Origin: Paraspadella gotoi
Lineage: Eukaryota > Animalia > Chaetognatha
Direction of reading: 5' to 3'
NCBI GenBank assembly: GCA_051294375.1
Contig: CM119271.1
Span: forward strand, 15,630,770 to 15,694,769
Length of the DNA: 64,000 nt
The position numbers and the translations under genes are program-made. Under the pieces are notes generated by a model, which saw only the letters and a list, made by a program, of their open reading frames with translations, was not told where the DNA came from and ran no database searches. Below, piece by piece: positions 1-50,000 of the stretch (within the stretch, counting starts at the first letter, position 1; each line of letters begins with the position of its first letter).

Positions 1-963
1 TTCCTTGAAACTTCGAGGTCAAATCAGGCGCCGCGGCGACTCTCATTAAGCCGTCTAAAAAAAACAATAGGAACAGGAGCGAGAAAACTCTTCCGAAACT
101 GATCCGTCGAGGGAAATGAGATAATCTGTAATGTTTGAAAGTGAGATGTTCTTTATAAGGGGATCCCATGCCGGCGCGGTTGTTGCCGCTGGCGCCAGCC
201 TCGCGACGGAGACGCCACGCGTCGTCGAATTCCTTGCGCATCTTTTCTTCGTCCCAATTTTGGAAGTTGTCGTCGTACGTGGTCGTGTCGCCGTATCTCC
301 TTCCTGAAACTGTAAATATTTCACAAATATTAAATAGGCAATGTAATAAGCTGAAAAAACTTGTTAAAACCATTCGCTCAAATTATACGTATGAAAGTTA
401 ATCTTTAATTGCCAAATTAATTGAATTCGCCTAACAGATAAACAGGCCTTAAACAGGACTTATTGGAATAAATAATGTTAAATATAAAGTTTTAAACGGT
501 ATCAAAACAAACAAATCAACAACGGGCATAAATAAAGACGACCTAAAAACTTACCCGTGGATCGGAAAGGATCGGCGGACAAAGTGAGGTCGTAATCTTT
601 TCGACTCCTTGCATTGGAAAGGACGTTGTAGGCCTCCGACACGGCCTTGAACCGTTCTTCCGCCTTCGGGTCGCCGGGATTCACATCCGGGTGAAACTCT
701 TTCGACCGGATGTAAAAGGCGTTTTTAATTTCGTCGGCCGAGGCGTTCCGCTCGAGTCCCAGAGTTTTGTAGTGATTGTCCACCGAGCCCGTGGTAGAAA
801 ATGCTCGACATCGCCACGCCAGTGTCACTGACGAGGGTTTGTGGGCGTCGGAGATCGAGGGGAAGATGGAAAGATGAAATGAGCGCAGGGTTGCGACGAG
901 ACGAGGGTTACCCTCCACGAGAGACGTTAATCTTTGCAATGACGTCAACGCCGAATGCATCAT
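1..963 (-). CDS. Mitochondrial-type DnaJ (type III, DNAJC4/DNAJC30-like); 3' end runs off the window
   Basis: Exon 1 (963-~555) encodes a presequence-like N-terminus and a J-domain (NHYKTLGL...KEFHPDVNP...RKDYD, HPD motif). GTAAG donor, CAG acceptor at 306-304. Exon 2 stays open to position 1 and includes a hydrophobic stretch (SLLFLLFFL). Confidence 0.85.
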
Positions 964-5193: not shown

Positions 5194-5765
5194 CGCTGGA
5201 GCCGGAGGCCAAGGTGGGTCGGAGTGTTGGAGTAAAAGTCGCCAAGACGAACATCGAATCTTTACTATGAATTTAAGGTTCAATGATTCTTATTGTTAAT
5301 TACTTTGTAGTAATAATTTGAATAGTTTTGATTATAAAATAAAGTGCAGTAAGCTGAATCGGTGAATGGATGGCAAGAATGTTTTGTTTTTTTTTTTATC
5401 GAGACGCGATGAAGAAAATGGTAAATTGCTAATGGCGGAGTGGGAGATCATTGTTTCTCTTTTTTCGCTTGAAAAGTTTCACTGTTTCCGTCTTGAATTA
5501 AAAATGAAAGAGCAGTCGATACAAGAAATCAAACAAAAGTCGCCCACGAATCCCAAATTGTATTTTGTTATAATAGTTTAAGAGCAACGAGGGGAATAAA
5601 ATTCGTGATTTAGGCCCTAAATTAGGGAATTAGGGAAATACTAATTCAATAATAAATAATACGAGTGACGCGACAACCTCGACAACAACGATCATAATCG
5701 AAATCACTAAATGAAATGAATATGGATATTTCTCAGAAATGCTTTCCTCCGTCGTCCTTCCGTTT

Positions 5766-8700
5766 TCACTCGGCCTCCGCCTTCACTTCCGCTTCGATCT
5801 TGACTTCCGCCATCGACGTCATCGACTCCAAAAAGGCGAGAAACTCTGGGGTGGAGGCGACGTACTTGAAGAGCGAAGAGAGGTGCTCCGCCTCCTCGAG
5901 GGGAAACCAGGCGAAGGCTTCGTGGATTTCCTTTTGTCTCACGAGTTGGAGGAAGTGGGCGGGAGGGTTGGACGCGCGCATTCGGGGCCGGCGCTTCCAG
6001 AGCGGGCGGGGTTTGCGGGAAATGTCGAAGAGGTCCTGAAATGTCATCAACGTTCATTAAATAAATGATTTTTGTACGTTTCTCCTACTATTTCTTCAAA
6101 CCTGAATGGGCTTTCCCGCGGCGCGGGCGACGTCGGGTTCGATCTGACGAAAGAAATAAAGAGTCGCGTCGCCTTTGTGCGGATTGAGGTTGTCGCCGTC
6201 CGTGCGAAGGACCGTCACCTGAAAAAAAAGACCAAAACGGATTGGACGAGTCACGGGAAGGATAAAGGCAGAGGACAACAACGCCGTCGCCTTCACCGTG
6301 CTCGATGCCTCCACGTCCTTGAGGCGAAGAGTGATGTCACACTCCTCCTTGAGTTCGCGACGAGCGCATTCCGCCGCCGATTCCAGGTGGATGCCCGTCG
6401 ACAACACCTTTTCAATTGTGATAAAATAAAATTGTTATATTTAAATAACTTAATCGCCCTGGGCTCTCAATATACAATAATAATCTAAATCGAGGCTTAT
6501 TAAAATTCTATGATTTGATCGCCTCATCAATTTTTATTTCTAAAGAATTCGACTACGCACGAAGTTTAGTCTTACAGTATTTTTTAAAATTATCCAATTA
6601 TTATTATGACAACCGCGATTGAAAACAAAAACTAGTTTAACAGAAATGGGCGATAGGAAAAACTCCAAAGGTCTCTCCAAAAGTGAATATTACGCAATGT
6701 TGATTAAATGATATTTAACTGGTGACGCCAACAACAACGAAACTGGGACACGCCCCTTCTTGACAGAGTACGGTCAGGATCGAGCGACGAACGACGCGGA
6801 AACCAACGCCAATTTGTCCAAACGATTAAGCGAAGAAGCCGATGGAGTGGACAAGGGGAAGCTCTTGGTGAGTTACACCGATATATCGCAATGGAACCAT
6901 TAACTGAAGCTTATAACTGTCATGTCTCTACTGAACAGAACTGCCTCTATTGGTTTCGGGTTCTCTGCTGTCCGCCCTGCGTTTGCTTCTCCCCTTCGGT
7001 CATGACCACGCGGTTGGCCTTCTTTCCTCCAAAGCCGAGTTATAAGATGGTGCCGCTCGCTCATTTGTCTAAAGACAGGCGAGAAGATGACATCAGTACT
7101 TTTACAGGCACCTTTGACATCTCATTCTTTTCATTCTAAATCTAGTGAATTTAAAAAAAAGAAAAGAAAGCGTCAGAGTCGCTTCGATCTCAACTACGCG
7201 TTGCAACTGAAACAATCGTCCAAGTGGCCCTTTGGTCCAGCGGAACTGGATAAGATCGAAGCAGTATTTGTGGAGACCAAACGAAAACAAGTAACGTTTG
7301 AGTAACGTTTGATTCAATCTAATTCAAAGAATCAGGTGGTAAGAGAAAAACTCGTCCCCCTATCAGTCGATCGCCTGTCTCCATTTCAAATGCGTGGATG
7401 AGCCCAAATACACGATCCTCTTCTCGCACACGAACGCCATGGATCTCGGGATGTCGGCTGCGCTGCTGCTGCAGCTAGGAGTTTTTCTCAACTGCAACGT
7501 GTGCAGCTACGACTACTCGGGTTATGGAGAGAGCAGCGGAAGACCGTCGGAGAAGAACATCCGCGCCGACATCGAGGCCGTCTTTCAAAGTTTGATATTT
7601 ATTCATTTATTTATGTTTGGATAAAGATTTAATGATAGTTTTTAAAATTTAATTCGAGATTCATTCTTATTCATCTTAATTTTGGTCTTTTGAATAGTTT
7701 AGTCATTCGTCAGTTGCCTCTTTCAATCAATACCCCCCCTTTAACAGTGCTTAGTGTGAGATACGGCGTACAACCAGGCAAAATCATTTTGTACGGCCAA
7801 AGCGTGGGAACGGCGCCGACTTGCTATCTGGCAGCAAGAAAGAAGGTCGCCGGGGTCATAATCGAATCCGGGTTTATGTCTGGAATGCGGGTAAACGAAT
7901 AAAGGATCGGTCTCTTTCCTCAACATCTCGCAACGACAACCAGTTTTATAGCTTCAATTCCTTATTGATCGACCCAGGTATTCTGTCCCAACAAGCGAGC
8001 GTGCGGTTGCTGCAGACCCGGACGTTGCGGAGATCATTGCTGCGACTCTCTGGTCAACATTGGCGAATGCCCAGATATTGGTAAAAATATAATAGGAAAC
8101 GCGAAAAAGAGACCAAAACAATTTAAGTGTGATCTCTCATTCTCAATCAGAATCGGTCGTCCTCGTCATTCATGGCGAAGCGGACGAAGTAGTTCACGTA
8201 AAACACGGATTCTACATTCAAAGCGAATGTCCCAACACAGGTTCTGTAAATGATCACTAAATTACCAAGGGTCAGACAAAATAGATTCGCCGAAATAGTT
8301 CCGACTACGCGACCTTGATGCGCCTCAATATCTCCTCCTTTTCAGTGGAGCCCCTCTTCCTCGAGATGGGTCGACACAACGACATCCACAGCTTCGTCGC
8401 CTACTGGTATCGACTTAAAAAGTTCGTCGACGTCGAGTTGCCCAAAAGAAACGTGAGGATTTTTGACTTTTTTATTTCGGTTCAGCAAAATTTTTGTCAA
8501 AATTATATTTTATTTTTGGTATAGATTACAGAATCGTTGCCGCCGCCGAAAAATTTTCTTCAAAACAATTCAAATGTAAGAGAATATAATTTTAATATAT
8601 GTGTGAGAGTCTTGATTGAAAGCTTGCAGGGACCTGCTATGTCATTATCTTGTAAGAGTGATGGAGGCCTTAAACCACCAAAGCCTGTCCAAAGTCAGGG

Positions 8701-11700
8701 GCAAGATAGCTTATTTATTAAATGAATGGATAATTTTTATATTGGTTGTACCAATTATATAATATATATTATACACAATTAAGTGTCATACTCATTTGTG
8801 TATCGCAAATATTCAGTTTTGGTTTACGTCACAGGTTTTACAATCGACGGAAATAAAGTCCAGTCCCGCAACGGATATCGAAGCATGAGATTTAATTAAT
8901 GTCATAAAAAAATATATTCTTAAAAGATGAATTATTATTCTTTACTCGAAACTGCGGTTTCGTTTTCGCCAGGGAAATTGGCTTCGCCATAAACACTGTT
9001 TATTAAGCAGTTGCGTCGAACAAAATTATAATGTTAAGCAAAGAGAAGCCAGAAAATTCAGGGGTTCAGACATGCGTATAGTTTTTTACAGCTGGGTAGC
9101 GAGGGCTAGCGAGGCTGTATGAAATTTTATGCCGTCCACCTCACCATCTTTTTTCTGCCAACCTGATGTCGAAATCCTCCGCGCGGAAGTTCCCAGTCTT
9201 TCGTCTCCTCTTCCTCCTCCTTCATTCTATCTCCCCTCCTCCTCATCTCATCGACGGCGCGCTCGGCCAACTCCGCGAATCCGTATTTCGTCTTCAGCGG
9301 AACCGAATCGTCTTCCTCGTCGCTTTTAAGCGAGTTCGTCTCTGGCGCCGTTTTCCCAGTGGGTTCTTCTATTTTATCTTCGTCGGGTTCGTCGTCGTCG
9401 TCGTCGTCGTCGTCTTCTGCGATGTCGGCAACCGCGGATCGCTTCGCTTTCTTCTCAGCTTTGGCGGAGGCGAAGAGGGCCTTCATTTCTGTAAGTAGAC
9501 CGATTCGTTATTATTATCTTATTAATCAATCATTGTATGAATCTGTTATTTTAAAATTATTTTATTCATTTAAAGAAAGAACCGGCGGCGGTTTTTCCTT
9601 CGAGCACTCCCGCCCATCTGTCCATCCACTTCCATTTCGTCAGAGCGAAAAGGGAGGAGAGGGAGGCTTTGTCCATTTTGGCAACGGCTTCTACCTCCTG
9701 CAATACATGATATATGACACGATTAAACTAAAAAACCAAATATATATTCGCAAAGAGAAAAGGAAGAGACCTGATTCGTCCAGCGTTGAATGTTCTTGAC
9801 GACTTTATTCACGTCGATTCTCATCGATCGAGTTGTCGATGAATCACGACGAAACTTGGGACGAGAACCGAAGACGTCCGCTAAAAAAAGTAATAACAAT
9901 TATTAATATTTATGGTTTTTAAGTTTTTAATAAGTTTTTAAAAACTGGAAGTTATCCCAATGAGGCAATACGCAAATTAGAGATTTAATTACTCGATCTC
10001 ATTTCATATTAAACATTTGATAAGTCCTTACATTCCTTACATTACTCCTTAACATTCAAAACCCACCAGCCCTCCTGAAGGCAAAGGCGAGCTCTTGGGC
10101 GACGGGTACAAAGGCGGGGGAGACTTTGTATCGTTTGAGGAGAACCTTGACGAGCATCTCCGACTTGGTGAGGACAACGACGCCAGCGCCCGTGAGGACG
10201 GGGGGAGTCGATGGGTCAACCTCGGAGGAAAAGGTAAGTATAATAGTATAAATTATCCTTTCCCGATTCGACGCAAAGTTATACTCACTTTTAAAATTCG
10301 CTCGCAACTGTTGGTAAGAAGAGTAATGCCGCCGCAAAATGAGACTTGCTTGAAAACAGCGTCGACGTTGACCAGCACCATCCCCGGCTCGAGCGGCGTC
10401 GGGCGACCCTCGGCGATGATCTCCAGTTTCTTTTCCGGATTGAGGCAGAGCAAAGGGCAGGAGAAAGAACCTGAGAAATTTATATCCAAGCATTTTAAAA
10501 GATGGCAAAAACAAAAAGATGGCAAAAACAAATTTAAAAGATGGCAGAAACAAATATTCATCACGAATCGTCACGAATCTTGTAAACAAATCTTCAAAAC
10601 AAATTTGTTCAAAGCCCGGCCTCTTTGAATCATCACCGTTGCCGACGACGACGACGTTCCTCTTCTCCGGCCACACCTCGACGACGATGAGGCGTTCGAG
10701 GATCGACTTGGGCACCGCCCAAGATTCCTGCGGCACCAACATCGTCTTCATCCTTTTACGCGGCTCTTGAAATTCCAGCAGCGAACGCTTTAACCCTTTT
10801 TATAAATTCGATGTAAATTAAACAACATCATATATCATATCAAATTATTCCACCTTGCGACGGAGACGCGACCTCGCGACCCAGAGCGTCGTGCATGACG
10901 ACTTTGACGATCGGCTCGGAGATTGATTTGTGGTCTTGTCCGTTCGTTGCTAAGAAACCGAAAAGAGAGGGAATAGTAAATGGTCTCAAATTTGGTCACT
11001 GGCATCAACTACCGTCTTTCTCAACCCAATTCATTAAGTCTTCCGCAGCTCGAAAAAGAGATTTTGATCTGGAATCGAATCTCTCTCGATACAAAAATAC
11101 TTTTCTCCCCACGAGATGCCAGACTGGATGCAAAGGAGCGCAGTTTCGCGAAACAAAAAATCCTGTCCGCTTCCGTCGTTGCTTAGCGACGTCGACGTCG
11201 CCTCTTTTTTTTCGCGCAAAGACTTCCGGGTGGCAAAAGAGACGGACTCCGATCCGTCCAACTGGCATCAAGGAGGTTTTCGATCCTTTTATGATTTCCG
11301 AGTCTTTGTACCTCAGTCTCGGTTATTATTAACGCAATCCGCGCGGCCTGAGTGCATTCGATGAGTCAACCGAGTTGAGGCGCCAGATTTCGTGACGTCC
11401 GGCGGAAGAGGAAGAGAGACACGATGCCTGAGGAATCGTCAACTGCCGAAACCCGCTCGTCAGATTAACGATTCGATTTTAATAATTTATGTTTAACCCG
11501 CAGGATATAAACAGAAGCGGTTAAAATCATATTCCGATCACCTCGCGCCCGTCCTTTCCTCCACGCCCCTTTCCACCCTGACTTACCCGTGAGGCCGACG
11601 ACGACCCCGAGTGCTCGACAGGCGGCTCTGGATGCGGATTCGACGGCCAAGTCGCCGTCGGGGTATTCCACGTCATCTTCGCTCGAGTATCGCGTCGAGT

Positions 11701-14700
11701 CGTCGAGAAGGATGCGGGCCACGAAGCGGCCGGACGTCTAGATGCATATAAAAGAGGATTTATTATATCTAGATTATCATATAGAGATTTGGTAAAGACT
11801 AATTGAACTCTTTAACACAAGAATGAACAACCCTGAAACCTCCCCCTTCTCACGCCAGCCTGCTCCACGACCGCTTCCGACGCTTTCCGTCCATTCTTTC
11901 GTAAAAATTCGTCGAGTCCGGCGCGCCAAGATGCAGCCGTAACGCGCGTCGCCTTCAAAAACCGCCGGGCCCGAATCGTGCGACGCGCCACGATCTTTTC
12001 CAAGTTGACCACACCGAGACCTTCGAGCGCCAGCTTGGCCGCCTCTTGCTCCGCCGTCTTCTTGCTCAAGTAGCTCGTCGCGGTGCTGCAGGGGAAAGGG
12101 GGGGGGGAAAGCCGTTCATTTTTTTTCTTTATGAAACGAAGGTTTCTTAATCTTATTTGCATATTGTAACTATGAAGAGCGCGTTGCCACTTTTAAAGTA
12201 TTCATTTTAATTCAACTGAATTTCGGGAAAAATTCAAACATGAGGGTTAAAATTAATAAATTAAAATTAATTCTTTTGAGTAATCGTCTCGAAACATCGT
12301 ACAAGATCGTCCACATCGTTTATGAAGAGGAAATAAACTTCAAGCAAATCGAAACGATCAAAGTAAAACGACGCCGACTCAAAAGATAATAAAAAACTTA
12401 AGTTAATTTTCTTTCTTTCGTTTATATTGGAATACTTGTATTTTCTTCATCGCGGATAAACGCGACTCTATTAGATCGGCTTCGCTCCGTGAATATCATA
12501 TTAAAAGTTATATTCACAAAAGAAAAAAGAGAGCGAGACACGGAACGTGACGGAGAGCGAGACAGACCTATAAGATCCGCCCTCGAATCGACAAGAGGCG
12601 AAATATCCTTTTCCTTCCTTCCGCTCGAAGGAGTAGACGGGCGGTTCGAGGTCGCGCCGCGCCAGGTGCTCTTGGAGGATCGACTTGAAAGGCTGCTGCT
12701 GCGTAGCACGCTCCGCCGCGTCGCGTTCCAAGGCTTCGTCCTTTAAAGCCGCCCAAGCCTAAAGGACAAATAGTGAAAAAAAAAAGTTGTGAACATGAAC
12801 TTTTAACATCGCAGATAGAAATGCAATATTTTTAAAACAAATAATAATAAATAAATAATAATTTTACCCCCCCCCCCAACCTCAGAGGCGGCGCCGAGTT
12901 CAGCCTGCTTCTTCGTTCGGTACAACTTTCCCGATTCGCTGTCGAAGCGTCGATCGCCGACGAAGACTTTGGCGCGGAAAGCGGGGCGACCCTCGTGGGA
13001 TATGGTCTCTGTCTTGGAAGAGAGAATAAGATACAAAAAAAGAAGAAAGATAGAGATGGAAAAAAAAAAGAGTGGAACTCACTGTATACGAGGGACCGAA
13101 CATCTGCCGCTTCATGCAATACTCGTTAAGGAGGAGTTTGCATTTGGAGGAAACGATGACGGCAATCACGTCGCCTCCGTTCTAGGATAAAGGGACACAA
13201 AAGAAATGGTTAATGAAATGGTTAATGAAATGGTTAATGAAATGATTAATGAAATGATTCATGAAATGGTTAATGAAATGGTTAACACTCCATTCACTTG
13301 ATCAGCGTCCAAGACCGCAGGAGCGGGAGGAGTAAGGCTCGCCTCGACGGCGGCGACGGCGACGGAGGCGGCGAGGTGTTCCGCCGCCTTCTTCGTCCGT
13401 GAAACTTCTTCGCTGTGGAGAAATAAACGCGTTCCAAATTGCTCTTTTTTATGAGCTCACTCCACATTGCAAAACAAAGCTTTATTTATAATTTCACATC
13501 GCAAAACCAAGCTTTTCTCTCATTTCACTCAAATCCTCACCAGGTAAAAACTTGTCCGTCGACTTCGACTGTAGAGACGAAGCCTTTGGAAGAAACTGAT
13601 TCCACGGTTTTAAAGACGGCGGGAGAAAGTTTGTTTTTCGTTAACAGATGATGAAGCCTGAAAGCGGATATTTTTTATATCAGTTGTCAAAGTTGAAGTC
13701 AGAAAGCAAAAAATGAGTGTTAGGTACATGACATAAAAAGAAAAAGTTAAAAAGTAAATTTTTTTTATATCATTTATTGGATGATGAATTGTGAAAGGTT
13801 TAATATCATAAAGTCTACTAGTGAAAATGTTTGATATAAATTCTAAGAATGTAATATTGTCACCTTTAGAAAATAAGCAGCTTCAAAGTCTGACTACCTG
13901 GCTTTAGCCGTCAAGTCCGGCGTCTTCCCGGCGGCAGGCGCCGTCTCAGCCGCGTCTTCGCCGCCGCCGCCGCCGACGCCTTCGTCAGAAGAATGCCAGA
14001 GGCCCAAGGATTCGAGGCAAAACTTAGCGGCGCTCAATTCCGCGCCCTTTTTGCTTCGCTCGGGAACCGGGCTGACGTAGGGGGATAGAGAGAATAGAAA
14101 GTCATGGGGAGAGAGAGAAAATGAGAGAGAGAGAGAGAGACTCACTTCCTGTATTCAATGTCTTTAAAAGTGACAACACAAGTCCAACTGGGTTCGAAGA
14201 CGGGGTTTCGCGTCGTTTGGTAACGGGGCATCGCCACGCCAATTCGTTGCGCGTATTCCTGAGAAAAGCGCGGAGGAATAAAAGTGTTAAGTCTAAGTAT
14301 CACTCGCCTTCTTTTTCTTCTCACTTCACAACCTGTAACTGTTTTTCCAAGAAATCGAAGGACGGAACCCTAAGTCTTTCTTGCCTTGGTTAGGAGGCGG
14401 AGCCTGAGTCAAGAAGAAAAGGAAAAAAAAAAAAAAAGAATTAAACAGCGATTAGTAAGAAATATCTTACGTTAATACGAAAATGTTAGTCTCGTACTTG
14501 GAAATGTATATGCGGTCGATCGACCATCGGCGCTTCGTAGCCATAATAATAATTTTTATCCTGCGGAAAATGAAAAAAAGGTTTTTGTTAGGGGGCGAGT
14601 TTCTTCCCGACAATTTAAGGATATATTTTCCTAATGACGTTTTCAGACTCCATGACCTCCTTACCTCCTTACCTCTGGTGAACCGTAAAAGTTGGGCGCC

Positions 14701-14824
14701 ATTCCGCCTGCAATAAAGCAAAAGCACCTAAAAATCTTTACAAAATATCTTTTGCTTCATGGCTTTTTTTTTCGCAAGGATTTCTTGTCGTACCTGGATA
14801 CGATTCGTAGCCGCTTGAATCCAT
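5766..14824 (-). CDS. Multi-dsRBD (about 5) + linker domain + Nudix hydrolase (viral decapping-enzyme-like) fusion protein, 22 exons, ~1,014 aa
   Basis: Exons: 14824-14794, 14707-14673, 14403-14333, 14258-14146, 14071-13898, 13657-13541, 13412-13298, 13181-13083, 13012-12881, 12758-12568, 12085-11854, 11737-11587, 10949-10854, 10795-10637, 10470-10346, 10220-10067, 9880-9771, 9697-9583, 9488-9163, 6407-6297, 6218-6102, 6035-5766. All junctions are GT-AG and in phase except a 1-nt shortfall in exon 3. dsRBD motifs: [61 protein letters not shown] and a degenerate fifth. Nudix: WELPRGG|...[17 protein letters not shown]. Confidence 0.75.
6646..8888 (+). CDS. ABHD17: ABHD17-like protein depalmitoylase (alpha/beta hydrolase), nested antisense in an intron of the dsRBD-Nudix gene
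   Basis: LCCPPC...[52 protein letters not shown] (Ser), [12 protein letters not shown] (Asp), GRHNDI (His). Multiple small introns; the first and last exons are less certain. Confidence 0.85.
8605..8756 (+). repeat. Dispersed repeat, family A copy (last ABHD17 intron)
   Basis: About 150 nt nearly identical to 63257-63409 (GAGAGTCTTGATT..AAGCTTGCAGGGACC..GGAGGCCTTAAACCACCAAAGCCTGTCCAAAGTCAGGGGCAAGATAGC..GTACCAATT). Confidence 0.9.
10497..10555. repeat. Short tandem repeat AAAAGATGGCAAAAACAAA x3 (intronic)
   Basis: Three visible imperfect copies. Confidence 0.8.
13204..13286. repeat. 12-bp tandem repeat (GAAATGGTTAAT) about x7, intronic
   Basis: Visible periodic array filling most of a 116-nt intron. 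Confidence 0.9.
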
Positions 14825-15407
14825 TTCTTTAACAAATTCGGACAGTTTTTACGATAATAATACTATTTTAATCGGAAACTGTAAATAATAATTAAAATGA
14901 AGCGTCTATGAGGAATGAGACTAACGGTCTTGCGATTCGTTTACACTATAAAATATAAATGTTGTTTCTTGAAGAATCAATTTTTCAAATTTTCTTTTTA
15001 AATCTTTTAATTCCGATGATTTGCGGTTTTGGTTATATTAAATTCTCGTAATAAATAAGAAAAAGTGATGCTTTTTGAATTAAGAATTTTCTTCCCCATC
15101 AGGGCCATCTTTACGCGTTTCTTGATTTCAGTTACGTTCGGGAACAGAATACCGATCAGGATACAAACTTTTAACGAACAAAGGAGAAAAGGGGTCGTAC
15201 GTAGTATGAATTTTCTCGTTTTGGATTTATTATTTTTGCGCAGAAAAATTTCGTCGATAAGATTTCAGATTCTATCGACAGTCATCGAAATAATGATTGC
15301 ATTTTTTTAAATTTTCAAGTCTATCGTTTATTGTCTTAAAGTAGAAAATAGAAGACTAGCTTAAGTCGTAGTTTTGAGCTCGACGGAAGAAGCGAAGAGA
15401 GAAGATC

Positions 15408-24271: not shown

Positions 24272-27200
24272 TTATTCAATTTCCATGATGAGATCTTGTC
24301 CTTCCAATTTCATGCCTTTTTCGGCGTGGATAGATATCACTTTCCCAGAGACCGGAGCGTTGACAACCATTTCCATTTTCATCGCCGACAAAACGGCGAT
24401 TGGTTTTCCCTTTTCGACGGAGTCACCGACTTTGACCACGACGTCGATGACGTCTCCGGGCATGGGCGCGCCCACGCTTCCGGGTACACCAACCCGCGCT
24501 TTGGGGTGAAAGGTCATTTCCTTGGCCGCTTCATTGTCGAGGATGAACAAAGATCTCAACTGCCCGTTGAGCTCGAAAAAAACTTCGCGCTGTCCGTTCT
24601 CGTTCAAATCGCCCTTGGCCAAAGTGACGATGTGAAGGATCTTTCCCTTTTCGATCTCCACGTCCATTTCCTCTGCGATGTCTGGTCCCGTTAAAAATGT
24701 GGGCGTGTCGAGACAAGTCACCGCGGTCCCGTATTTCTCTCGGAAAGTTAAATATTCTCTGGCGACGGCCGGATACATGGCGGCGCTCATGACGTCCGCT
24801 TCGGTGATTTGCTTCGCGTCGTAACTTTCCTTCAATTCTTTCTCGAGGGCGTCGAAATCGAAGGGCGCCATCGACTTGCCGGGTCGACCGCTCACCCGCG
24901 GCTTATCCTTCAGAACTTTGCTTCTCAAAGGCTCAGGGAATCCGCCGACGGGTTCGCCCAAATAGCCTTGAAGAAATTCCACGACTGAAGAAGGAAACGA
25001 AAGCTCTTCCGCTCTGGCGAGAACGTCCTTCGAGCTCAGTTTATTCTGGACCATAAATTGGGCGAAATCGCCCACGACTTTTGAAGATGGAGTCACTTTG
25101 ACTAAATCTCCCAAGAGAAGATTCGCTTCGATGTAAGACTTTTTCACTTCCTCAAACTGCTCGCCTAATCCCAAGGAATAAGCTTGGAACTGCATGTTGG
25201 TATATTGTCCGCCGGGAATCTCGTGCTTGTAAACGTCGGCGTTGCCCGACTTCATGGTGACGCAGCATTCGAAGGGACCGTATAATTGGCGCGCTTGTTC
25301 CCAGTAAGCGGAATAGGCGGACACGTCGTCCAGAGAGATTTGGGTGTCGCGCGGTGTTCTTTGCAACGAAGCCACCAACGCCCCCATCGACGGTTGCGAC
25401 GTCATTCCGCTCATAGAATCCACGGCGACGTCGACAATGTCGGCACCCGCTTCGGCACAGGCCAGCATGGAGGCGACGCCGCTGCCGGAAGTGTCGTGGG
25501 TATGGACGTGGATGGGAACATCGGGATATTCCTTCCGAAGGGCGCCGATGAGCATCTTGGCGGCGGAAGGTTTGAGGAGACCAGCCATGTCCTTCACGCC
25601 GAGAAAGTGCGTTCCCGATTTGACGAGAACGTCCGCCATTTTCATGTAATAATCCAGGGTGTACTTGGTCTTCTTAGGATCGGAGACGTCGCCAGAATAA
25701 GACATGGCCGCTTCGGCGATGCCACCAGCCTTGCAGACGGCCTCGATGCCCAGCTCCATGTTGGGAAGATAATTGAGGGAATCGAAAATACGGAAAACGT
25801 CCATTCCATGATCGACGGACATTTGGCAAAACTTGAAGATGACGTTGTCTGGATAAGAGGTGTAGCCGACGGCGTTGGCTCCGCGAAGAAGCATTTGAAA
25901 AGGAATGTTGGGAACGAGTTCCCTTAATTGAGCGAGACGCTCCCACGGGCATTCGTGGAGAAACCGCATGGCGACGTCGAAAGTGGCGCCGCCCCAATTT
26001 TCCAAGGAGAACAAATCGGACATGTGATGAGAGAGGAAAGGCGCGATCCGTTTTAAATCGTAGGTCCTCACTCGAGTTGCGAGGAGCGACTGATGGGCAT
26101 CGCGGGAAGTCGTGTCGGTAAGAAGGAGACGATCGGTAGCCCGAACGGCACGGGCGAGAGCCTCGGGTCCTTGTTCTTTGTAAATATTTCGAAAGCCCTT
26201 GGGAGGAGCGGGGAGCGTCTCTGCGTTATTCGAGATGTTTTCTTCTTCCGGGTTAATCGGACCCGAGGGTCGCTTGGGCGGCGGCCGACCCGCCACGGCC
26301 GGCACCGCCGGAACGATCTTGGCCGGAGGGACGTTAGTGGCCAGGGGCGTTGATGGACCGTTGACCATGACCTCTCCTAGATAGTAGAGCAATCGCTGAG
26401 CTCTATTCTGCGACGGTTCCATGTGAAACAATTGAGGATTCTCGTCGATGAAGTGAGTATCGACGACGCCGCTGAGAAACTGCGGATGTTGGAGGACGTT
26501 GAGGACGAAAGGAATGTTGGTCTTCACCCCTCGAATACGAAATTCTCGCAAGGCGCGATTCAATTTGGCGCAAGCCTCTTGGTGCGTCCTTCCCTTGGCG
26601 ATCAGCTTGACCAAGAGGGAATCGTAGTAAGGAGAGACGACGGCTCCGGCGAAGGCTGAGGCCGAGTCGATGCGAATCCCCATCCCTTCTCCCGAACGGA
26701 AGACCTCGATCCTCCCCGTGTCCGGTTGAAAGTTTTTGGTGGAATCTTCGGTGGTCATTCTGCATTGGATGGCGCAACCGTTGATTTTGATATCGTTTTG
26801 ACGAAGATTCAATTCCTCCAAGGAGTGACCTTCGGCGACGCGAATCTGTGTCTGCACGAGATCGATTCCCGTCACTTCCTCCGTCACCGTGTGCTCCACC
26901 TGCAATCGGGCGTTGACTTCGATGAAAAAGTAGTCGCCCTTGCTGTCGACGAGAAATTCCACCGTGCCGGCGTTGTGATATTTCACGTGATTAGCGAGCT
27001 TGAGAGAATCTGCCAAGACCTTTTCGCGGACTTCCTTGGGGAAGATCGGCGCCGGGGCGATCTCGATTACTTTCTGATGACGCCGCTGGACGGAACAGTC
27101 TCTCTCGTACAAATGAATGATGTTGCCATGTTTGTCTCCCATAAGTTGAACCTCGATATGACGAGGTCGTTCGATAAATCGTTCGATGAACATTGAACCG

Positions 27201-27967
27201 TCGCCGAATGCCGCCAGCGCTTCGGACGAAGCGCGTTTGAAACTATCCTCCAACTCGTCGGCGGATTTAACAATCCTCATTCCGCGTCCTCCGCCGCCGT
27301 AGGCTGCCTTCAACATTATCGGGAAGCCCGATTCTTTGCAGAAAGCGACGGCTTCGGCCGCCGACTTGATCGGGCCGTCGGAACCGGGAATGACGGGCAC
27401 GCCCGCTTCGATGGCCGCCAATCTCGCCTGGACCTTGTCACCCATCCTGGCCATCGTGCCCGAAGTGGGACCGATGAAACTCATTCCTGCATCCTCGACG
27501 GCGCGGCAAAAGTCGGATCGTTCGGAGAGAAATCCGTAACCGGGATGAATGGCGTCGACGTTTTGCGATTTGGCCAACTCGACGATCTCCGGAATGTTGA
27601 GATAAGCTTCGACGGGCTTCAACCCTTTGCCCACGATGTAGGCCTCGTCGGCCTTGACCCTGTGGATCTGGCGTTGGTCTTGTTCGGAATAGATGGCCAC
27701 TGACCTAATGCCCAATTCGGTGCAGGCGCGAAAGACTCGCGTCGCGATTTCTCCCCGATTGGCAACGAGTAATTTTCTGATCGGCTCAATCTTCCCGGAG
27801 GCATTTCGAACGTGGTTAACAGAGACTCTTTGATCGGATTTTAAAAGCCAGCGATGTCCCGTTAAAAACAAGTGTGGTCTCTTACAATTTACTGATTGCC
27901 ACTCGTGAACACTAAGTAATACAGGATTGGACACAGCCCGAGATCGAACTACGTCCAGTAGAGGCAT
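24272..27967 (-). CDS. PC: Pyruvate carboxylase, mitochondrial precursor (single coding exon)
   Basis: About 1,231-aa ORF: [31 protein letters not shown] (biotin carboxylase); [26 protein letters not shown] (carboxyltransferase); SAMKME biotin site. Confidence 0.98.
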
Positions 27968-44090: not shown

Positions 44091-47000
44091 CTACTCGGAA
44101 TCGGATTGTGGCGCCAAATCCAAAATCTCTCCTAATCGTTTAAACCACAAGGAGACGTTTTCCTTCAACTTGGGATCCGTGGCGTGAGTCACGAGCTGAT
44201 TGGCCGATTCGAAGAGACACGGGACGAGCGCCTCGAACTCGCCATCGCTCGGTCGAGACACGACGACGCCGAAGACGACGTTGAGGGCGGCGACAAGCGA
44301 ATCGTGGCGAGCGGCGCTGTCATCGATCAAAGATTTCTCCTTTCGGACACGACAGATTTCCTTTTCCATGGCCTCAGGAGATTTCACGAGGGGCGCGCCC
44401 ATCGGGTCGCGCAGCCCGGCCATAACGCCGGACATGGCGAGATGGCGCCGCGATCTGCCGGCGGCGCGAAAGGGTTCGACGCCGCCGTAGACTCGCGGGG
44501 CGCCGGGCATAGCTCGTTGACCCTTTCGTTTCTTGTACTCTGACGTTAGAGACTCCACGTCTTCTTCGGTGGCCGGAGTGTAGACGTTTTCTTTTAGGCT
44601 TAAATCTTTGGTTTCTTCAGGGTCGTCGTTTTCATCTTCGTCGTTTTCGTCGTCATCCTCTTCATCTGCCTCTTCCTCTTTCGATCCTCCCATCAAAGAT
44701 TTCAACTTAAACTCTGACAAGTCATCGAATTTGGCCAAAAGGAAAAACAAAGGTTTCTTAGCGAGAGCATCGGCGATGTATTCCCGACCGAATTTGTCCA
44801 ACTGAAAATCGATGTATCTCTGCGTTTGCTCTTTGACTCCCTTCCTCAACCGACGAAGGAACGACTTGTTAAATCTCGCCTCTCGAAGTAGAGAATGAAA
44901 GTAAAGAAGAAAAGAGACGGAAGAGGCGCTGTAGAGATTGAGAGCGACTCGAGCCCCGACCACGTTTTGCAACAGGATCTTGAGTCCGGGTCGAGCGTCG
45001 AAATCGTGAGCGACGTTCGTAGATTCCTCCAACGCGTCGAGGAGGAGGTTGGAATCGGTCGTCGAGAGGCCTTCGGATCCACGGGGAAATCGTCGTCGAT
45101 CTTCGAAGGCGATCGTCGTGGCGGCGGCGAAGATGGTCTCGTCGGGCGCGATTCCGCAGCCTCGCAACAAGACTCCGCCGATGGTTTGAACGACGAGCTG
45201 ATGGGCTAAGAGGCCGAGCACGACCCGACGGAACTCGACGGCTTCGTCCGGCTGGAAATTCGGGAGACGTTTGAAGCAACCGACGTCGTCTTCATCGTCG
45301 TCGTCGTTTCGATCGTAAAGCAGAAAGACGAATGATCTCATCGTCTCATCTCCAGAGGTCATCAATGGCGCGGCGTCATTTTCTTCGCTTCCCGTCATCT
45401 CGCCAATTCTTTGAGACTCGACCAGAAAAACTCTCCGCGCTAGTTGACGCAGCTGACGCGCCTCAGCCGCAGAGCAGTCTCGGCGGGCGCCGACGCGAAC
45501 GCGACGCGCGTCCCCGTAAAAGTTTTCCGATCCTTCGGAGAAACAAGTCATAAGCCGTTTTAGAGGATAGAGGGAGACGTGGACAGCGCGGCGTAACGCG
45601 CGACACGCTACGCTCCAAACTTCCGGCGAAAAATCGGCCGCCGCGTCTCCTTCCACGAAGAGATGCTTGAGACATGAGCAAGCGAGTCGAGAGATGGACT
45701 CGTCGGCGGCGGCGATTCCTTCGACGACGACTTCCAAGAATTGCTTCGTCATGAAGGCCAAATCCTTTTTTATAAAAGACGAAGAGGAAGGTCCCACCTT
45801 TATCATCAAATCAGCGATGGAATTGGTGGCCAAGCCGAAGCATTGCTTCAAGTTCATCAAGTAAGAATCTCCGAGACCAGATTTGTCGGTCGTTTCCTTT
45901 CGCAACCAAAATTGTATCATGGGCAGGAGCAGAGTGTCGATGCAATAAATAGAGAATCTTGGACCGGGACAATCCGCCAGACCGTTGAGGATATCAAACA
46001 GAAGCTGAACGGCACGAGGCTGATAAACCCGAGGGCAGAGAGTCACGGAGGAAGCGACGCCTTCCACCAGCAAATACCAAACGTGCAAAATGCCCGTCCC
46101 TTGGTCGAGATCTCCGATCGTTCGCGAATCTGGTCCATCGTCGGAATAGATGTTGTCGCGTGATTCATCCTCGTCATCCAAGGGTCGAAGATCGAGAGCG
46201 ACGTCTTCATCATCCTTCGAAATCTCTTGGGAGGAATTGGGCCGAAAAATCTCGTCTTCTTCGAGCGGGAGAGAAAATCTTTGAAACAAAAGATTCTCGC
46301 TGACGTGAGGGATCGATGAATCGATGTTCTGCGGAATGTCGCTCAGTTTTATCCAATGCGCAGCCGGAAATGTGGGGCAGTTGAGCATCTTGTACATCGA
46401 GGAAAAAATGTCGGAGGTTTCTTTAAGAAATTGAAAGGCGGGGAGACAGAGGCAGTCGGCTCCGGGAGAAAGGTTGTCGGTTTCATCGTCGGTGTCGTCG
46501 TCGTCGGTCTCGCTGTCAGAGTATGGGTCTTTGTTCGTCGGGGGATAAAGATCTTTGTCAGGAATGGCTCCTCCTCCTCTGAGATACTTGAGCAAACAAA
46601 GAACGCAATCCAGCGCCGCGTTGGCGAAAATGCCGACTTTTCCGGTGCCGAAAAAGGCGCGAAAGACGTCGAGCACCGGCTGAACGCGATCTCCGTTTCT
46701 CTCCGGCGTCTCGAAAAACCGGAAGTGGACATGACGCAAGGCAGCGAAGAGAGGCTTCCATCCGGAGCCGAGTTCCTCGGCATAGCCTTCGACGAGGGCG
46801 CAGAGGACGGTGAGGGTCTGACTCTGGACGGCGGGTTCGCTCTCTAGACAGAGGATGGTCTCGAAGGGTTTGACGAAGGCTTCGTGGAGATGAAAGTATT
46901 TTCTCTCTTTGACTCGAACGAGCATCGTGGCGACAACTTCGTAGAGAGTCTCCACCGCCTTCGACGACAACGACGCGTCTCGACTCGTCGCTGCCGCCAG

Positions 47001-50000
47001 AAGAAAAGGCTGCGCGACACTCCAGCATTTTAAGACGTGGAAAAGAGGCCGCGTCTCCGATTGACAAATTTGGATGATGGAGTCCGAGAGGCGTTGAAGT
47101 AGAATCGAACTGGAGACTTCAGATTCACGATCCTCTTTACGTTTCGAGCTTAAACTCTCCTTCAGCGCGGAGCCGAGTTCTCGAAGAAAATCGCAGAGGG
47201 CGCTGGCGGAGTAAGTCCTAGTGACTAGATCAAAGAGCATGTCAAAACGTGAAGTAAAGTACATGAGAATCAGACTCGTTTGACTGATGGGCAAACAGCC
47301 GCCGAGATCGGGCTCTTGCAAAGACGTCGGTCCGGAGTTCTCCAGGATATCGGCGATGACGACGGTGAATGGTTCCGACTTGACGCCGTAAGGGGTCTCG
47401 ACGAAATCTTCGACGGCGCTCTCAAGATTCTCGCCGACGGCCGTCTCCAGGGCGATCTTCTTCAACGACGAGGCCAACCCGGTCTGCAATCGTTGGTTGG
47501 AAATCGTCTTGGATTCTTCGGCGTCGTTGGTCTTGCAAAAGGCGCGTTCGACTCGAAAGAGATGGAGACAGGATTTGATGATTGGTCCCCAAACGGAGGG
47601 AAAATCTCGACCCAAATCGAGAGCGTTCTTCGCCACGACTTCCAAACAAAACACCGGCGACGCGTGGAGACAATTGACGTGGACGCCTTTGACGGAGACG
47701 ATCGCTTCTTTGCGCGGCGTCTCGCTCTCTCGATCCTTTTTGCGCGGTGTCTCGCTCTCTTGATCCTTTTTATCCCATTTCTCCGCGTCCCGACGCAGCG
47801 CGGCAGCGAGAAAGCCTTTGGAGAGATTCTCCGGGAGTCGCTTCTCGAGAACTTTAAACGCGTGGGATTGAAAGGTTTCTCTGGGCTTTTCTTCGAAGGC
47901 GACGTCGCTGGGCGGAGGCAGAGACGAGAAGGAAGCGTGGAGACGAGGCGGAGAAAAGCTGCGCGGTTTGACTGAGGAGGCGTCCTCCAGATGTTTGAAA
48001 GCGATGGTAGCCACGTGAGCCTCGTTCGTCAATCTAGACAATTCCAAGAGGCCGTCGAAACCGAAGGCGGCGGAATGGGCGAGAGCTCGAGATTTCTTGA
48101 GCCTCTCTTTGGGCCAGGCGTGCCAGGCGTTGAAGGGGAGGAGGGCGTGTTGAGCGAGGGACGACGATGAAGGAGCAACGACGCGACATGCCGTCGACGA
48201 TCGGTGCAGCACGCCGACAATTGGGCCGAGGCAAGTGCGGAGGACCCGTTTAACGAGGGCGGAGGCGATGCGGAAGTGGGCGGGGGTATAAGACTCAGAG
48301 GGCAAGTGAGGAGGAGAAAAAGGACAAGATTCTCTCTCAAATTTCGTGAGGAATTCGATCAAACGAGGATCGAAGGAAATCACGTGACCTCCGTCACCCG
48401 AAAAGCGTCGGTTTCTAAGGCCGACAATGCGTCGATACACACTGGCGATCCAAGCCGACGTCAAAAACACCAACGCACCACCTTCGAAAATCTCTCGCTG
48501 AAATTCCTCGGCGGAGATGATAAGATCCCCATCGGCCGAAGAGAGATACAGTCGCAAGCAGTGACACGCCAGTATGTACAGTCCGTCCGCGTTAAGAATC
48601 GTCACGCACTGAAACTGCTTTTGCGAATCGCCCATCACGCCGTGACAAAATGTCGAGGCGAATTCCAAGAGCGTCTCGTCCGCCTCCGTCGAATCCTCGC
48701 AACGATTGAGTCGCGGAACGAGGGACATCAGTTCTTCGACGAATCGGTCGGCGTCGTCGCCGGAGAGACCGTCGACGAGCAACTTGGGCGCAGAGTCGGA
48801 GGAGGTCGATTCCCGCGCTACGTAGGCGGAGGCGCGGAGTCCTAATTCCGAGGCGAGAAGATCCGATTCGGATGGAGGATTTTGACGAGAAGGGAGATGA
48901 GTTTTCGAGGTAGAAGAAGGAGACAAACTTTTTTGCTTTTCATTTTCCTTCGTAGATTTGCCGAAAACGTCGTCGTCGTCATCGTCGATTCTTTCATCGC
49001 GATCGTCTACCGTCTCTCGATTCCCCAAATAAAACTTTCCCAACTGCGTCATTCTCTTCGCCGAAATCTTTTTCTCGTTCGTCAGAATTTCCTTCAAAGA
49101 GATCAAGAGTCGATTGATGGACGCCGTCGCTGCCAAGAGACAGGACGACGCGGCGTCGTCGTCGTCGGCGACGGCGTCGACGAGATCCGCGGCGCCGTCC
49201 AACATCAGTTTGAGGATCGCGACGTCGGTGAGAGGATTCTGAGCGGCGGTGGGAGCGGATGATTGGGAGCCGGGATCGTCGTCGCTGGAGGGGTAAGGGA
49301 TTGTTTTGATATAGTTAATAAATTAATTAATCAAAACATAATCATAATAATTGTCAATATTCGTAGTCTCGACCTAACACACTTTACGACTGGCGGACCG
49401 ACCATCGTCGCGATCAATCGCGCGTCGCCCAAAATTTCTGAGAAAGTCTCCAGGGCGGCGCGACGTTGGAAAGGAGGAGAATTGAAGAGAATGCGATGAA
49501 AGAGAGCCTAATTATAATTTCATAATTTTAGAAATATGTTAATTATGGCAATAGCCAACGACTCCCGATTCTCCGTCTCAAAACCTGCAGCACGGGACGC
49601 AGAGATTCGACGCCGCCGCAAATCCGCAGCAACTCGACGGAGATCTTGTGGATGGAAAGCAAAACGTTTTCTCTTCCCTCGGAATTTTCTAACGCGGCGC
49701 CGCTTTTATCCAATTCGTGTAGAAACGCCGGCGAACGCGACGACGCCACGGTAGGCGCGCCGAGAGCGCCGACGAGTTTGGGACAGAGATCGCGCCAAAC
49801 CTGAAAGAATTAGTTGGATCAAAAGTCATAAACGACGTTATGCAAATGAGACCAAGCTCCCCTCACCAGCTCGTTAAAGGGCGAGGGAGAAAGCGAGACC
49901 GAGGCGGGAATTTTAGCCAAGAATCGACGAAGAGCTTCGAGAGAAAAAACGAGGAGATCTTCTTTGAAAGAGATCGTCGACGCGTCCCCCTTGGCCTCTC

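Follow-up and report, generated by a model that had tools for sequence, protein, structure and literature searches.

A spliced Paraspadella gotoi gene joins five dsRNA-binding domains to an inserted-helix Nudix domain with similarity to giant-virus decapping enzymes

Introduction

Proteins with several dsRNA-binding domains (dsRBDs) include Staufen, TRBP/PACT/Loquacious and the plant DRBs, and PKR and ADAR are fusions of dsRBDs to enzymes; we know of no multi-dsRBD protein that carries an OB-fold and a Nudix hydrolase. The Nudix box of the decapping enzyme DCP2 is of the W-G-F-P-K-G and C-A-x-RE type.

Nudix enzymes whose fold is interrupted by a helical domain are known from large DNA viruses (available parts of PMC9131872 and bioRxiv 2021.10.04.463123). 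As far as the available parts of these reports and of PMC8478210 describe them, g5Rp, L375 and D9 liberate m7GDP when acting on capped RNA, and they depend on the box glutamates. D9 accepts both duplexes and single strands, and viral decapping enzymes limit dsRNA build-up (bioRxiv 2021.10.04.463123, in part). The helical domain of DCP2 lies N-terminal, whereas that of D9/D10 is inserted (same source, in part).

Our literature search, which covered mainly open-access papers and not their supplementary domain tables, returned neither a dsRBD-Nudix fusion nor a cellular enzyme of this type, in agreement with the first-pass annotation, which knew of no such architecture. The part of PMC9775027 available places dsRBD and Nudix on different Dus2 paralogs; the search also covered PMC4793324, a DCP2 paper, in part. 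Here we describe a gene in a 64,000-nt stretch of the Paraspadella gotoi genome (the window; GCA_051294375.1, CM119271.1, 15,630,770 to 15,694,769) that represents a real, conserved and apparently undescribed family.

Results

One spliced gene of 23 coding exons

The gene model rests on reading phase, GT-AG borders, RNA joints and colinear orthologs:

5766..14824, minus strand: whole gene, 23 coding exons, 1,054 aa
Exons 1-6, minus strand: 14824-14794, 14707-14673, 14560-14498, 14403-14333, 14258-14146, 14071-13898
Exons 7-12, minus strand: 13657-13541, 13412-13298, 13181-13083, 13012-12881, 12758-12568, 12085-11854
Exons 13-18, minus strand: 11737-11587, 10949-10854, 10795-10637, 10470-10289, 10220-10067, 9880-9771
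Exons 19-23, minus strand: 9697-9583, 9488-9163, 6407-6297, 6218-6102, 6035-5766
14340..14341, strand not applicable: one base absent from the window assembly in exon 4 (DNA runs X1, X5 and X6, and X9)

All 22 introns are GT-AG, GC content is 0.58 in exons versus 0.35 in introns, and the joined exons read in phase without an internal stop, given one added base in exon 4. This base, behind plus-strand coordinate 14340, is present in all three DNA runs compared and in the RNA-like run X9, and its absence is therefore an assembly error in the window and not a broken gene; a true frameshift is ruled out by the three DNA runs. One-base indels relative to the short-read runs were also seen at 7076-7144, 14307, 14644, 14720 and 14935-15072, alongside one joint with non-canonical ends, which together indicate homopolymer errors in the assembly.

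RNA evidence was taken from contigs of X9, whose RNA nature is our guess and whose contigs skip introns. At least 11 of the 22 joints occur in spliced X9 contigs, including 11587>10949 and 9163>6407, the latter skipping 2,755 nt. Nine further joints agree by length, exons 3-13 plus 29 nt amounting to 1,488 nt against an X9 contig of 1,491 nt, and the offset of exon 12 (181) agreeing exactly. Introns 1 and 2 have no joint among the X9 joints listed, and no X9 contig spans the entire coding sequence, the breaks falling at exon 14 and at a GAC repeat (9380-9425).

The first-pass annotation had proposed that open reading frames resembling three unrelated genes splice in phase into one gene of 22 exons and about 1,014 aa. 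Phase, RNA joints and orthologs uphold the single gene, and the exon count and length are revised to 23 and 1,054 aa. Three separate genes are ruled out by the X9 joints together with the single-contig orthologs. The joint 11587>10949, named in advance as one to look for, is present; that to 6407 was found from donor 9163 and not from the alternative donor 9145. Neither of the transcript ends that would have assigned the 6407 exon to another mRNA gained support from X9. Donor 9145 and an end at 9127 were rejected on the X9 joint at 9163 and on bins 8824-9099, which lack RNA cover; for an end at 11366 there are only low-depth contigs of intron 13 (depth 20.9 and 30.2 versus 127.8), and contigs cannot show ends. 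We read these contigs, at 11040-11595, as retained intron or pre-mRNA; if the intron is retained, translation would stop near 11465 and the isoform would consist of dsRBDs only.

Two observations concern the gene borders. One X9 contig of 3,246 nt extends from exon 20 through the stop codon and on past 5300 in the direction of an anillin-domain gene on the same (minus) strand; a contig crossing two genes in this way (5300-5766) does not prove a single transcript. At 14879, 54 nt before the ATG, there is an acceptor-like site where an X9 contig from the SRP68 side stops and continues with 833 nt unplaced in the stretch compared; a 22-nt piece of these is absent from the window. Trans-splicing or an operon at 14879 is possible.

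Five dsRBDs and a predicted OB-fold precede the Nudix domain

The N-terminal and central domains are as follows:

14002..14352, minus strand: dsRBD1, aa 61-128 (Pfam dsrm on orthologs)
13343..13911, minus strand: dsRBD2, aa 159-225
12741..13148, minus strand: dsRBD3, aa 252-323
12013..12692, minus strand: dsRBD4, aa 340-405, the most conserved of the five
11606..11931, minus strand: dsRBD5, aa 433-502, degenerate, without the KK of helix 2
10289..10724, minus strand: predicted OB-fold of SSB/PriB/RPA type, about aa 565-654

Four stretches of each of the four full-length orthologs match dsrm (PF00035; E 1e-32 to 1e-46). In a leave-one-out test, none of 1,000 shuffles scored as high for any of the five dsRBDs, locating the "about five" of the initial annotation. 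The degenerate dsRBD5 scored 11.1 bits (0/1000 shuffles as high), and Pfam dsrm gave no match on its exon 13. A tandem array with a degenerate last copy before the effector part recalls known multi-dsRBD proteins. The linker of about 110 aa that had been annotated as an unknown domain is now predicted to be an OB-fold.

The architecture is conserved in other species

A search of 1.84 billion representatives with the natural frame containing exons 15 and 17 gave seven proteins, one of them (P0002) full-length. The C-terminal 476 aa of P0002 yielded four more relatives from 7,994 candidates scored, making 11 distinct relatives in all. Their sources are contigs of JGI, Logan, ENA or MERC, with no annotated NCBI or UniRef source among them. 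Five orthologs were aligned, four full-length (1,049-1,136 aa) and one beginning at dsRBD3. Each follows the model colinearly on a single contig of 3.0-4.1 kb, and pairwise identities are 40-66%. Genomic-looking fragments (P0004-P0008) start or stop their match at the exon 15/16, 16/17 and 17/18 borders, and at the exon 8/9 border L240 opens with intron-like sequence. Since these fragments break at exon borders of the window, intron positions appear common to other species, and together with the colinear single-contig orthologs this indicates that the fusion is old and has been kept by selection.

Exon 23 had no relative among 540 candidates or among 413 stretches, and exons 16, 17 and 23 and P0021 retrieved nothing useful from the PDB. 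Two prokaryotic pattern matches look like chance frames and were discarded. An RG-rich tail present in all five orthologs is absent from the end of this protein (5766-5800), where X9 has no indel.

The Nudix fold has an inserted helical domain and an extended box

The catalytic part comprises:

10113..10196, minus strand: first two Nudix strands, aa 663-690, ending in K-R-Y-x4-A-F
9196..10112, minus strand: inserted helical domain, aa 691-878, with W-[TS]-x-x-E and two invariant Trp
About 9444-9310, minus strand: variable acidic loop within the insert, aa 796-840
6333..9195, minus strand: Nudix box, aa 879-914, split by intron 20
5766..6332, minus strand: C-terminal Nudix half with Y-F strand, Q-x-E...W motif and an invariant loop ([15 protein letters not shown])

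Helices are predicted between the strands (aa 663-690) and the box (from aa 879), giving the inserted-helical layout. The box consists of WELPRG, a conserved 8-residue insertion and E-X7-RELKEE-C-D-I. The canonical G-X5-E spacing is absent, 13 residues separating G884 from E898 in all six members, while the catalytic helix E898-X7-RELKEE has equal spacing in all five orthologs. The motifs and spacing quoted in the earlier annotation are correct, as are its intact glutamates; its replacement of the terminal G by D is true of this protein and not of the family, in which the last box residue is G in four of six members and A in P0002. The same count rules out the terminal D as a sign of particular closeness to D9. 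Against the Pfam NUDIX cut-off of 21.1 bits, three of the five orthologs score above (23.1, 21.9 and 26.2) and two below (19.5 and 19.1), and exon 21 alone reaches 18.2 bits.

With g5Rp/D250R and L375 (PDB 7DNT, 7DNU) the protein shares, in the same order, a strand pair, an inserted helical domain, W-x-x-P-[KR]-G, E-x4-C-A-x-RE-x-x-EE, a Y-F strand and the Q-x-E...W motif, as well as the K-R-Y...A-F that opens the insert and a T-x-x-E within it; two orthologs carry WGFPKG, like the W-x-x-P-[KR]-G of the viral type. Those enzymes are stand-alone products of intronless genes, about 250-400 aa long, and their box is canonical, whereas this gene is cellular, has 22 introns and encodes a 1,054-aa fusion in which the enzyme stands behind five dsRBDs and an OB-fold, with eight extra box residues, an acidic loop in the insert and the family-specific 15-residue loop. 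The protein is thus viral-type by layout, yet, being fused, spliced and extended in its box, outside the viral decapping family.

D9/D10 (PDB 7SEZ) likewise have a helical domain inside the Nudix fold, and D9 a similar box, E-S-x-x-[DE]-C-x-RRELKEE-x-D. Their HH probability of 79-88% is box-driven, the profile similarity being essentially confined to the box; with the box held fixed, 1 of 500 shuffles for the D9 profile and 241 of 500 for D10 scored as high. Of the D9 cap-stacking pair, F54 corresponds to a variable M/T/P and Y158 maps to no residue with confidence, so there is no clear counterpart. DCP2 has its helical regulatory (BoxA) domain N-terminal to Nudix, whereas here an OB-fold precedes and the helices are inserted. 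Pfam DCP2 matched none of the five orthologs, and the protein is not DCP2.

Probable kinship with giant-virus enzymes and the origin of the domain

In a whole-domain profile comparison, g5R/D250R-L375 was recovered with an HH probability of 97.8% (E 1e-12) and no cellular profile alongside, and none of 60 comparisons with shuffled flanks scored as high. Identity to these viral enzymes is about 17%. The viral profile itself matches DCP2 chains at E about 1e-12. These data support the conclusion that, within the set tested, which had no DCP2 or NUDT2 profile, g5R/L375-type viral enzymes come closest to the inserted-helical Nudix domain. The resemblance to NCLDV enzymes over DCP2, first noticed by eye in the motif order, is consistent with this comparison, the inserted helices and the lack of a Pfam DCP2 match, and no robust grouping with a standard animal NUDT family lacking the helical insertion was found.

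Taken alone, the similarity of the insert to the g5Rp helical domain is marginal. Shuffles scored as high in 516/2000 and 94/150 cases with single sequences; hand-picked blocks gave 22/1000 shuffles and 6/128 decoy windows, and profiles 0/120, 6/150 and 4/120. Structure models were poor (mean pLDDT 53.5 and 45.1), Foldseek gave E = 2.5 against g5Rp, and 25 unrelated helical rows rank above g5Rp. Single-sequence comparisons (phmmer, pairwise shuffles) were too weak, HMMER scores of 6-16 bits covering the box only. There were no viral matches at E<=0.001, a sequence search of the PDB with the family profile missed g5Rp, and tiling exons along one viral protein was unsuccessful. In a weak test, the viral profile found one protein, without dsrm, among 7,988 candidates scored in proteins of 689-2000 aa.

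The catalytic domain probably entered the host lineage by an ancient capture from a nucleocytoplasmic large DNA virus. In its fullest form, in which an animal lineage captured a giant-virus decapping enzyme, with which these viruses shut off their host and conceal their own dsRNA, and added introns, five dsRBDs and an OB-fold to make an effector that decaps when triggered by dsRNA and joins PKR and ADAR as a third kind of dsRBD-guided enzyme, this history is tentative. A cellular origin, with the insert-type Nudix an old eukaryotic lineage surviving in few taxa and the viral enzymes its relatives or derivatives, is possible at a similarly low level. The tree, which has no cellular outgroup, gives no direction. 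Its long stem (4.29) and the lack of starred support for placing the family within the viral rows suit a cellular origin, as do the common intron positions, which make the gene old, and the finding of no family member in viral contigs, nor of any close viral relative. But the 11 of 11 relatives outside annotated sources point to a narrow range, and the structure papers on g5Rp and D9 report that searches with the inserts gave no homologue elsewhere (PMC9131872 and bioRxiv 2021.10.04.463123, in the parts available).

A candidate dsRNA-targeted 5'-end pyrophosphatase

Our main reading, to which we give a probability of about 0.5, is that this single spliced, conserved gene encodes a relative of giant-virus decapping enzymes acting as a dsRNA-targeted 5'-end pyrophosphatase. 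dsRBD1-4 would grip a long RNA duplex by shape, and the predicted OB-fold may hold a single-stranded or frayed end. By analogy with g5Rp, L375 and D9, the glutamates of E-X7-RE-L-K-EE would bind metal and cut a 5' pyrophosphate, most likely that of an m7G cap, where the Nudix domain meets the inserted helical domain, with specificity set by the family-specific loops. The 5'-monophosphate product would then enter 5'-3' decay, clearing duplex RNA of viral, transposon or antisense origin.

Because the D9 aromatics have no clear counterpart and the family has loops of its own, a triphosphate end or a small molecule is a real rival substrate. Nematode PIR-1 has a role comparable to the first, and bacterial RppH is a Nudix 5'-pyrophosphohydrolase. 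An RNA 5'-polyphosphatase of a small-RNA pathway, converting 5'-triphosphate duplexes to monophosphates for Dicer or Argonaute, would be consistent with the cap-stacking aromatics not being visibly kept, with tandem dsRBDs whose degenerate last copy recalls Dicer partners, with the RppH precedent and with the weak match of the viral set to RNA pyrophosphohydrolases. We consider it unlikely, since the tested relatives are m7G-dependent, L375 not cutting unmethylated caps (PMC8478210, in part), and no Dicer or RdRP gene lies among the neighbours scanned.

A dsRNA-switched enzyme acting on inositol pyrophosphates, ApnA or ADP-ribose, with the dsRBDs as sensor and RNA not the substrate, seems rather improbable. 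Two loops bordering the active site are invariant and specific to the family, which suggests a changed pocket, and g5Rp cleaves diphosphoinositol polyphosphates and dinucleotide polyphosphates (PMC9131872, PMC8478210, both in part); but the predicted OB-fold right before the catalytic domain and the RG-rich ortholog tails fit RNA, and the g5Rp helical domain binds RNA (PMC9131872, in part).

Intron 20 and the gene neighbourhood

6408..9162, minus strand: intron 20, 2,755 nt, holding a spliced plus-strand alpha/beta-hydrolase gene and a high-copy repeat

The nested antisense gene (6564-8530, plus strand), presumably ABHD17-like, has at least eight RNA joints and weak Pfam abhydrolase matches. 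The first 31 nt of its X9 contig (at 6564) are absent from the window and match none of the chaetognath leader forms given in the available part of PMC2481426; they may be a distant exon, a leader or a chimera. The repeat at 8600-8760 is short and very high-copy (contig depth >100,000 in X1).

The neighbours are SRP68, the anillin-domain gene, an Arm_2 gene and pyruvate carboxylase, a set that would suit an animal genome. The last (24272-27967, minus strand; 1,231 aa), whose closest PDB entry is a mitochondrial enzyme, is intronless, and like a 1,743-aa stretch in one frame that carries a Sec7-like HDS domain (44091-49322, minus strand) it stands in an otherwise intron-rich region. The position among SRP68, the anillin-domain gene and pyruvate carboxylase, and the steady conservation across all domains, would suit housekeeping cap processing of structured cellular RNAs (snRNA, spliced-leader or SRP-type RNA) in place of defence. 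We regard this as doubtful: a eukaryotic gene neighbourhood says little, and the lack of relatives from annotated genomes is unusual for a core factor.

Discussion

The inserted-helix layout described from large DNA viruses occurs here in a conserved cellular family, joined to dsRNA-binding domains. If the dsRNA-targeted pyrophosphatase reading is true, cells would possess a new way of handling dsRNA, by removal of its 5' end, in contrast to the editing, dicing or signalling of known systems; the antisense overlap between the gene and its nested neighbour could itself make dsRNA. The enzyme would be either a viral host-shutoff enzyme kept by the host or the missing cellular source of the viral enzymes, and either origin bears on where viral decapping arose.
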